Below, in pieces: positions 2,571-3,608 of a DNA stretch of 9,022 nt. Origin of the DNA: Escherichia phage CBA6; the sequence record KM389297.1; one strand, 5' to 3'. The number at the start of each line of letters is the position of its first letter. Positions within the stretch are counted from its first letter, which is position 1. The position numbers and the translations under genes were made by a program. Under the pieces are notes generated by a model, which had not been told where the DNA came from, made no database searches, and was given only the letters and a program-made list of their open reading frames with translations.

Positions 2571-3608
2571 ATGGGTAACTTATTTGATCGTCTTAAACAA
2601 TCTCGTGGCCAACAAGCCGAAGCTATGCAACAGCGTCTCGCTCAGCAAGGTCAGCGTGTTGGTGGCGGTCGTGACCCGCGCATCTGGAAGTGGACTTGGA
2701 ATGAAAAAGGCACTTCCGAAAACATTATTCGTTTCCTGTCTATCCCTTTAGTGGACATGAAGGCCAAAGAAGAAGGCACCATCCCTGAAGATGCTGTGTT
2801 AACTCCATGCGCCATGATCATGAAACACGCTTTCCAGGGTGCTGGCGGCTGGTATATCGAAAACTCACCTCAGACTTTCGGTAACGATGATCCGGTTCGT
2901 GACCACGATCGTCCTCTGTGGGCACAACAGAAAGAAACGAACGATGAAAAACTGAAGACAGTCTTGAAAAAACGTCTGCCGGACACCAAATACTACGCCA
3001 ATATCCTGGTGATCAAAGATGGCAATAATCCGGAAAATAACGGCAAGGTCTTCTTGCTGGAATTCGGTAATGCCGTCAAGAAAATCCTGGATTCGGCTCA
3101 GAATCCTAAGTTCTCAACCGACCCGAAATTCGACCCGTTCGATATGTGGGAAGGTGCGAATCTGATTCTGAATCTGTACGGCGAAGAGAAAGAGTTCGGA
3201 AACTGGAAAGGCCTGGTTGCCAACTTCACCAACGTGAAGTGGGATAGTCCGGCACCGCTCGGAACCGACGAATACATTGAAGAGATCTGGGAAAAAGAGC
3301 ACAGCTTGTTTGAGTTCTTTAATCCGGCCAACTTCAAATCGTACGAAGATCTGGAAAAACGTTTGCGCAAAGTTCTGGCCATCCCTGATAATCAGCCTCT
3401 GGTTGAAGGTGGTGCTTCTACTATGGCACATGCGCCTACCCAGTCTCAGGAACCCCAGCGCCCGACAGCGCAGGAAAGTCTGAACCAACAACAATCTCAG
3501 CCTTCTAATGCACAGCAATCTGTTCCAGCCAATAATGGTGGTGCGGGTGCCGATGCGAAACAGACGGCTTCCATTGATGAGTTCGAGCAGTTCCTGAAGC
3601 AAGACTAA
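2571..3608 (+). CDS. 32: Single-stranded DNA-binding protein, T4 gp32 family
   Basis: 345 aa. Segments KHAFQGAGGWYIE, YYANILVIKDGNNPENNGKVF and DMWEGANLILNL match the T4 gp32 core ([45 protein letters not shown]). Q/S/P-rich linker and acidic C-terminal tail (IDEFEQFLKQD) as in gp32. Good RBS; terminator follows. Confidence 0.9.
   Translation: MGNLFDRLKQSRGQQAEAMQQRLAQQGQRVGGGRDPRIWKWTWNEKGTSENIIRFLSIPLVDMKAKEEGTIPEDAVLTPCAMIMKHAFQGAGGWYIENSPQTFGNDDPVRDHDRPLWAQQKETNDEKLKTVLKKRLPDTKYYANILVIKDGNNPENNGKVFLLEFGNAVKKILDSAQNPKFSTDPKFDPFDMWEGANLILNLYGEEKEFGNWKGLVANFTNVKWDSPAPLGTDEYIEEIWEKEHSLFEFFNPANFKSYEDLEKRLRKVLAIPDNQPLVEGGASTMAHAPTQSQEPQRPTAQESLNQQQSQPSNAQQSVPANNGGAGADAKQTASIDEFEQFLKQD

Follow-up and report, generated by a model that had tools for sequence, protein, structure and literature searches.

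The gp32-family single-stranded DNA-binding protein encoded by Escherichia phage CBA6 lacks the cysteine zinc ligands of T4 gp32

Phage T4 gp32 is the textbook single-stranded DNA-binding protein (SSB), and for forty years its zinc has been seen as inseparable from its stability, its cooperative binding of ssDNA, its stimulation of UvsX and its translational autoregulation. A gene in Escherichia phage CBA6 (record KM389297.1) encodes a gp32 homolog that was predicted, from its letters alone, to be missing the cysteines of the zinc subdomain. The locus raises three questions: whether the site is truly gone, what occupies its place, and whether the state is peculiar to this gene. We addressed them in a window of 9,022 nucleotides, the whole stretch of DNA that was analyzed, and among database relatives of the encoded protein.

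Identity and setting of the gene

The feature under study is as follows.

2571..3608, + strand: coding sequence of a gp32-family ssDNA-binding protein, 345 aa, with an ATG start and a TAA stop at 3606-3608 (PF08804, PHROG 224, phmmer)

The product matches PF08804, "gp32 DNA binding protein like", over positions 1-207 of the 208-position profile (E=5.9e-66; score 222.9 bits, cutoff 26.8 bits), and PHROG 224, "single strand DNA binding protein" (E=4e-101), which places it in the gp32 family by profile. The only solved structures matched by phmmer were those of T4 gp32 (1gpc, 8gme) and RB69 gp32 (2a1k, 2atq), at E~1e-16. At the nucleotide level the gene shares 99.9% identity with the annotated SSB gene of Salmonella phage STML-13-1 (Ackermannviridae, Kuttervirus) and 99.3% with its counterpart in phage Vi01, and the window is, on sequence grounds, Kuttervirus (Ackermannviridae, ViI-like) DNA. 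Neighboring genes encode a RuvC-like resolvase, a small zinc-ribbon protein and a gp33-like late-transcription coactivator (PF16805, E=5e-19); further neighbors are a 5-hmdU DNA kinase and, in the record annotation, a convergent tail-tube gene, a gene for a gp2-like DNA end protector and baseplate genes. This is a gene setting of T4-type replication, recombination or late-transcription functions. By sequence, predicted fold (see below) and gene context, the protein belongs to the gp32 family, and it is an ordinary, well-conserved phage replication SSB; for the phage itself, the finding reported here changes little.

Four candidate expression signals flank the coding sequence.

2472..2499, + strand: candidate sigma-70-like promoter, TTAACT-16-TATAAT (consensus scan, 10 of 12 matches)
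2539..2550, + strand: 5'-UTR hairpin, GCCC-GAAG-GGGC (MFE and centroid folds)
2558-2563, + strand: Shine-Dalgarno sequence AGAGGA, 3' of the hairpin
3616..3635, + strand: intrinsic-terminator-like hairpin AAAGCCCCTTCGGGGGCTTT with a T-run, between the gp32 gene and the convergent tail-tube gene

The TATAAT element and an upstream GTTAA..TCA block are conserved in the upstream regions of Klebsiella, Enterobacter and Vibrio relatives (L010, L011, L012). Two enterobacterial relatives retain the stem of the 5'-UTR hairpin (GCCC-N4-GGGC) around loops that differ. At z=-1.1 the stability of the 5'-UTR fold falls short of significance, and scanning the entire window against Rfam at E<=1 gave no match. 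By analogy with the autoregulation of T4 gene 32, the hairpin at 2539-2550 could act as a translational operator. In T4, the zinc domain is reportedly needed for this autoregulation (Shamoo et al. 1991, as cited in PMC535899).

Several observations concern the neighboring genes themselves. Two genes upstream of the zinc-less gp32 lies an 81-aa ORF (1746-1991, + strand), annotated as hypothetical, with a CxxC...CxxC zinc-ribbon pattern and a PF09723 (Zn_ribbon_8) score of 34.2 bits, just below the 34.4 cutoff. The tail-tube frame (3636-4775, - strand) opens at a GTG at 4775 and would encode 379 aa, and a related record gives 314 aa from 4580; the annotated start at 4580 is probably right, because a frame of the greater length would run into the divergent gp2-like gene at 4635. 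The ORF at 7725-8294 (+ strand) is a 5-hmdU DNA kinase (PF18748, E=9.4e-107), and an overlapping CDS labeled "terminase small subunit" in the STML-13-1 RefSeq record is probably a misannotation. The kinase homology marks the phage as a thymidine hypermodifier. Delftia phage PhiW-14 and Ralstonia phage RSP15, which are among the phages with the closest gp32 relatives, are hypermodifiers as well.

Ligand positions and predicted fold

Each monomer of T4 gp32 keeps a single zinc ion (PMC8549804), and its ligands are His64, Cys77, Cys87 and Cys90 (PMC3012046; PMC8549804), the same set that the original prediction named. The corresponding segment of the CBA6 protein comprises the following features.

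2826..2921, + strand: former zinc-knuckle segment, residues 86-117 (alignments and model)
2826-2828, + strand: H86, equivalent to T4 H64 (alignments)
2865-2867, + strand: S99, equivalent to T4 C77 (alignments)
2889-2891, + strand: D107, equivalent to T4 C87 (alignments); a helix starts at the next residue, 108
2898-2900, + strand: R110, equivalent to T4 C90 (alignments)
within 2826..2921, + strand: H112, a bulky "filler" position (alignments)

The 345-aa protein contains a single cysteine, C80, at a variable strand position, and four histidines (86, 112, 244 and 287). The strings TPCAMIMKH, GWYIE and NSPQTFGNDDPVRDHDRPLW start at residues 78, 93 and 98, respectively, so that the stretch following GWYIE is indeed free of cysteine and the one nearby cysteine, C80, does lie upstream within TPCAMIMKH, as had been claimed. 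The original prediction overlooked that the histidine of TPCAMIMKH is H86, the conserved T4 His64 equivalent.

These equivalences derive from MAFFT alignments of two sets, the 120 closest database clusters and 160 sequences made up of the 150 best representatives, the CBA6 protein, T4 gp32 and eight proteins of isolated phages. The T4 sequence used was checked against the 8gme alignment and the GenBank protein of Tequatrovirus teqskov (293 of 301 residues identical). Both alignments put S99, D107 and R110 in the cysteine columns, bearing out the predicted loss. An ungapped BLASTP alignment to the zinc-bearing, KVP40-like gp32 of Vibrio phage D491s, WFIEACPSTIDLPCPCCAANGELW against WYIENSPQTFGNDDPVRDHDRPLW, yields the same equivalences, with the three D491s cysteines facing S99, D107 and R110.

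The original prediction had warned that its register might be off and that a proper alignment could bring cysteine ligands into place, in which case zinc ligands would be present but displaced elsewhere. A pairwise phmmer alignment to T4 alone does differ from the multiple alignments by two residues at 87 and 90, shifting C87 and C90 onto V109 and H112, and there is no cysteine there either. The offset arises because T4 carries a two-residue insertion (GDYDSC) that is absent from most of the family; the KVP40-like gp32, which has the same spacing as the CBA6 protein and aligns to it without gaps, settles the register. Since C80 is the only cysteine in the whole protein and occupies no ligand position, a Cys3 site is impossible in any register, and the displaced-ligand explanation is refuted, its probability being negligible. 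The alignments thus confirm that the canonical His-Cys3 zinc site is gone from this gp32, His64-Cys77-Cys87-Cys90 being represented by H86, S99, D107 and R110. As the defining ligand feature was tested and found absent, the protein falls outside the T4-type zinc-metalloprotein class.

The predicted structure indicates how the rest of the protein is organized.

2571..2672, + strand: N-terminal basic segment, residues 1-34, net charge +4 (charge count and alignment; low pLDDT, helical)
2673..3395, + strand: OB-fold core, residues 35-275 (pLDDT and Foldseek)
2742..2804, + strand: loop/helix insertion, approximately residues 58-78 (alignment; helix 60-68 in the model)
3396..3605, + strand: C-terminal tail, residues 276-345, a Q/S/P-rich disordered linker and a terminal acidic amphipathic helix, IDEFEQFLKQD

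The AlphaFold2 model, made with an alignment of 44 sequences, has pLDDT values of 90-98 over residues 41-270 and 93-94 over residues 81-120, and DSSP assigns a helix at 108-123 that begins right after D107. Foldseek matched the model to 2a1k (TM 0.85) and 1gpc (TM 0.81) with probability 1.0, the range including 8gme being TM 0.72-0.85. A core OB-fold of gp32 topology is therefore confidently predicted to be kept without the zinc ligands. The aromatic and basic residues of the cleft are retained, with T4 Y99, Y115 and Y186 represented by W117, Y141 and F219; among the DNA contacts that differ from T4, Y84 is deleted, Y106 corresponds to L132 and the KRKTS motif to LPDTK.

The basic segment (residues 1-34) is a putative counterpart of the T4 cooperativity (B) domain by analogy of position and charge; the protein has no literal copy of the T4 KRKST motif. 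The C-terminal tail, with pLDDT below 50 except in the helix at 336-343 and a net charge of -5 over residues 276-345, resembles the T4 A domain and may likewise recruit partners. The terminal D/E-x-L-x-x-F/L motif is common to the CBA6, T4, KVP40-like and cyanophage proteins. The linker (residues 276-330; 3396-3560, + strand) is nearly uncharged, with 13 Gln in 70 residues, unlike the acidic, Ser/Asp-rich A domain of T4.

The insertion at residues 58-78 lengthens the segment between the T4 L48 and F58 equivalents to 22 aa, against 9 in T4. Confined to the Ackermannviridae-like clade, it shows no general correlation with zinc loss. We rejected it as a compensation for the missing zinc because cyanophage-type zinc-less proteins carry a short loop of T4 length.

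Loss of a feature that is important in T4 might also be read as the mark of a decaying gp32 copy without function, its work being taken over by another SSB. This is very improbable. The gene is covered over at least 80% of its length in 177 phage records, of which 175 match it, full length, at 90% nucleotide identity or more; conservation, with invariant core residues, extends to homologs of only 35% identity; the fold is predicted with confidence; and the reading frame is unbroken and accompanied by promoter-like, Shine-Dalgarno and terminator signals. Normal function is further supported by the basic N-terminus, the cleft aromatics W117, Y141 and F219, and the acidic C-terminal helix.

Replacement of the zinc site among relatives

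The zinc-less state extends well beyond CBA6. An exhaustive profile search (E<=1e-3) delimited a family of 3,794 clusters at 50% identity. The full ligand set is present in none of the 120 closest clusters in the alignment, which include Ackermannviridae of Salmonella, Escherichia, Klebsiella, Enterobacter, Erwinia and Serratia, as well as Vibrio phages, Ralstonia phage RSP15, Delftia phage PhiW-14, Acinetobacter phage SH-Ab 15599 and many marine sequences. In the 160-sequence set only 32 proteins read H-C-C-C and 89 have no cysteine at any of the three positions; samples were ranked by similarity to the query, and the 20% share of H-C-C-C is no estimate for the whole family. A pattern scan of IMG/VR returned 80 loci; the Cys3 set was likewise absent from every one of them, and 74 read S...D-P-[VLI]-[SG]. 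The ligand columns of isolated phages, in the order T4 64-77-87-90, are as follows.

Straboviridae / KVP40-like (teqskov, Lazarus, D491s): H-C-C-C
Kyanoviridae (S-SSM7, C48C1): H-S-D-G
Eucampyvirinae (F355, CJLB-14): Y-S-C-Q, Y-S-D-Q
Pootjesviridae (phiM9): F-S-D-Q

Judged from these alignments, the zinc-less state is common among the sampled relatives and is no peculiarity of the CBA6 gene.

The replacement is stereotyped. Among the 89 Cys-free homologs, Asp occupies T4 position 87 in 88 and Ser occupies position 77 in 81, and position 90 is Gly, Ser or Ala, or Arg in the Ackermannviridae-like clade. The residues in two further columns follow the zinc state: zinc forms have Pro at T4 position 78 where zinc-less forms have Leu or Arg, and the column of CBA6 residue 112 is small (Ala, Ser, Asn) in the former and large (Leu, Tyr, Met, His) in the latter. 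The histidine at position 64 is present in all 32 H-C-C-C sequences and gives way to Tyr, Phe or a different residue in 30 of the 128 others (Fisher p=7.5e-4, uncorrected for phylogeny). We define a zinc-less Ser/Asp class by Ser at 77, Asp at 87 preceding a helix, no Cys at 90 and a bulky residue in the CBA6-112 column; with S99, D107, R110 and H112, the CBA6 protein belongs to it.

Thus, we propose that the gene very probably encodes a functional, zinc-independent T4-type replication and recombination SSB in which ordinary side chains have replaced the zinc site. Asp107-Pro-Val-Arg110 would occupy the place of the T4 zinc knuckle Cys87-Pro-Val-Cys90 at a helix N-terminus. D107 would cap helix 108-123 and hydrogen-bond to H86 and S99, R110 would pair with D107, and residue 112, with its bulkier side chain, would occupy the cavity vacated by the metal. 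Contacts among H86, S99, D107 and R110 are expected from homology to the T4 site, in which the four ligands converge on one atom; with the fold conserved, their counterparts should be neighbors. Such a protein would bind no metal and would retain ssDNA binding and cooperativity. The compensation is non-trivial, since T4 gp32 without zinc binds ssDNA more weakly and no longer stimulates UvsX (Qiu et al. 1994, as summarized in PMC8549804).

The original prediction had left two options, a zinc-independent protein or one with alternative coordination, and the second is the only serious rival to the reading just given. Zinc or another divalent metal might be held by His and Asp side chains (H86, H112 and D106/D107/D111/D113): two His and five Asp fall within residues 86-113, in principle a metal-capable set, and the DDPVRDHDRPLW block is strongly conserved in homologs at least 57% identical. 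Yet H86 is Asn in two close Kuttervirus-like proteins that are 74-76% identical, P0008 and P0011 (Salmonella phage CRW-SP2). Position 112 is H, F, Y or W in the wider clade and L, Y or M in other Cys-free homologs, which fits a packing residue. Moreover, a cationic Arg stands at the former fourth ligand position, and the cyanophage-type Ser/Asp relatives have Gly, Ser or Ala there and no second His. An alternative His/Asp site is therefore unlikely, and of the two options zinc independence is the one that the sequence comparisons favor.

Turning to the history of the site, many Ackermannviridae-like relatives keep one relic Cys at 87 (H-S-C-R), and Kuttervirus proteins read H-S-D-R. Five relatives (P0070, P0076, P0085, P0121 and P0125) have the His and two Cys (77 and 87), with Arg, Asn or Ala at 90 (H-C-C-R, H-C-C-N, H-C-C-A); these could be three-ligand zinc sites or decay intermediates. 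The occurrence of two-Cys and one-Cys relatives in the clade suggests a stepwise decay from a zinc-binding ancestor within the Ackermannviridae-like lineage.

Among marine gp32 sequences, zinc-type and zinc-less (H-S-D-x) forms are interleaved at 56-69% identity outside the knuckle, the state being almost uncorrelated with core similarity. The nearest neighbor is zinc-less for 18 of 31 zinc-type sequences (marine representatives), and P0161 (H-C-C-C) and P0155 (H-S-D-G), which share 56% identity, remain collinear across the knuckle. Parsimony counted 17-28 state changes on NJ or bootstrapped UPGMA trees, against about 29 with shuffled tips; being so close to the shuffled level, these trees cannot give the direction of change, and we did not trust the "no zinc" root state obtained by midpoint rooting. 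The interleaving reflects either frequent switching of state, or exchange of a short segment, or limited resolution of simple trees.

On a broader and more tentative reading, which we hold to be quite possible though short of probable, gp32 proteins as a family would form a natural experiment on the dispensability of a structural zinc, with many independent switches or knuckle exchanges and with Cys-free forms converging on Ser77, Asp87 and a bulky residue 112. If so, the zinc dependence of T4 gp32 would be a trait of its lineage and not of the family, and Kuttervirus would be the end point of a series H-C-C-C -> H-C-C-N/A -> H-S-C-R -> H-S-D-R.

Significance and comparison with known systems

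The gene itself is not new, as its SSB annotation already stands in many GenBank records. A search of the full-text literature, a scope outside which patents fall, found no published description of a zinc-less gp32, from Ackermannviridae or otherwise. Patents on isothermal recombinase-polymerase amplification reportedly noted the missing zinc ligands in cyanophage gp32. Abundant natural zinc-free gp32 proteins would offer a means to separate the role of zinc from the role of the subdomain, as well as a clean case study in the loss of a structural metal site. They could also serve as templates for engineering a gp32 independent of metal and reducing agent; commercial T4 gp32, which is applied in isothermal amplification, is stored with DTT.

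The CBA6 protein shares with T4 (1GPC, 8GME) and RB69 (2A1K) gp32 the Pfam family, the OB-fold core and, judged by position and charge, a putative three-part layout of basic N-terminus, core and acidic C-terminal tail. The WYIE strand, the knuckle Pro-Val, the ANILV strand, the WEGAN motif and the His64 equivalent are all kept. Identity is approximately 25-31%, and the CBA6 protein differs in replacing the three Cys ligands (S99, D107, R110), in missing the two-residue T4 insertion with Y84, in a loop at 58-78 that is 13 residues longer, and in a Q/S/P-rich, weakly acidic tail (-5 versus -11).

Nearer than T4, at 34-39% identity, are the gp32 proteins of T4-like cyanophages (Kyanoviridae; S-SSM7, C48C1) and marine viromes, which likewise are without Cys3 and have His, Ser and Asp at 64, 77 and 87. 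They differ in having Gly, Ser or Ala at the fourth position, where the CBA6 protein has Arg, in lacking the 58-78 insertion, and in having Leu, not Pro, at position 78. Among the Ackermannviridae-like proteins (Klebsiella and Enterobacter phages, Erwinia Bue1, Serratia Kevin, Vibrio VAP7 and K469, Ralstonia RSP15, Delftia PhiW-14), none has the full ligand set; many keep one Cys and a few keep two, whereas Kuttervirus keeps none at the ligand positions. These proteins have the insertion of the clade and its fourth-position Arg in common with CBA6 gp32. Finally, the Ros/MucR zinc finger offers a parallel by analogy only, its fold and function being unrelated: zinc-free homologs carry polar or hydrophobic substitutes for the ligands, and both the fold and nucleic-acid binding are kept.
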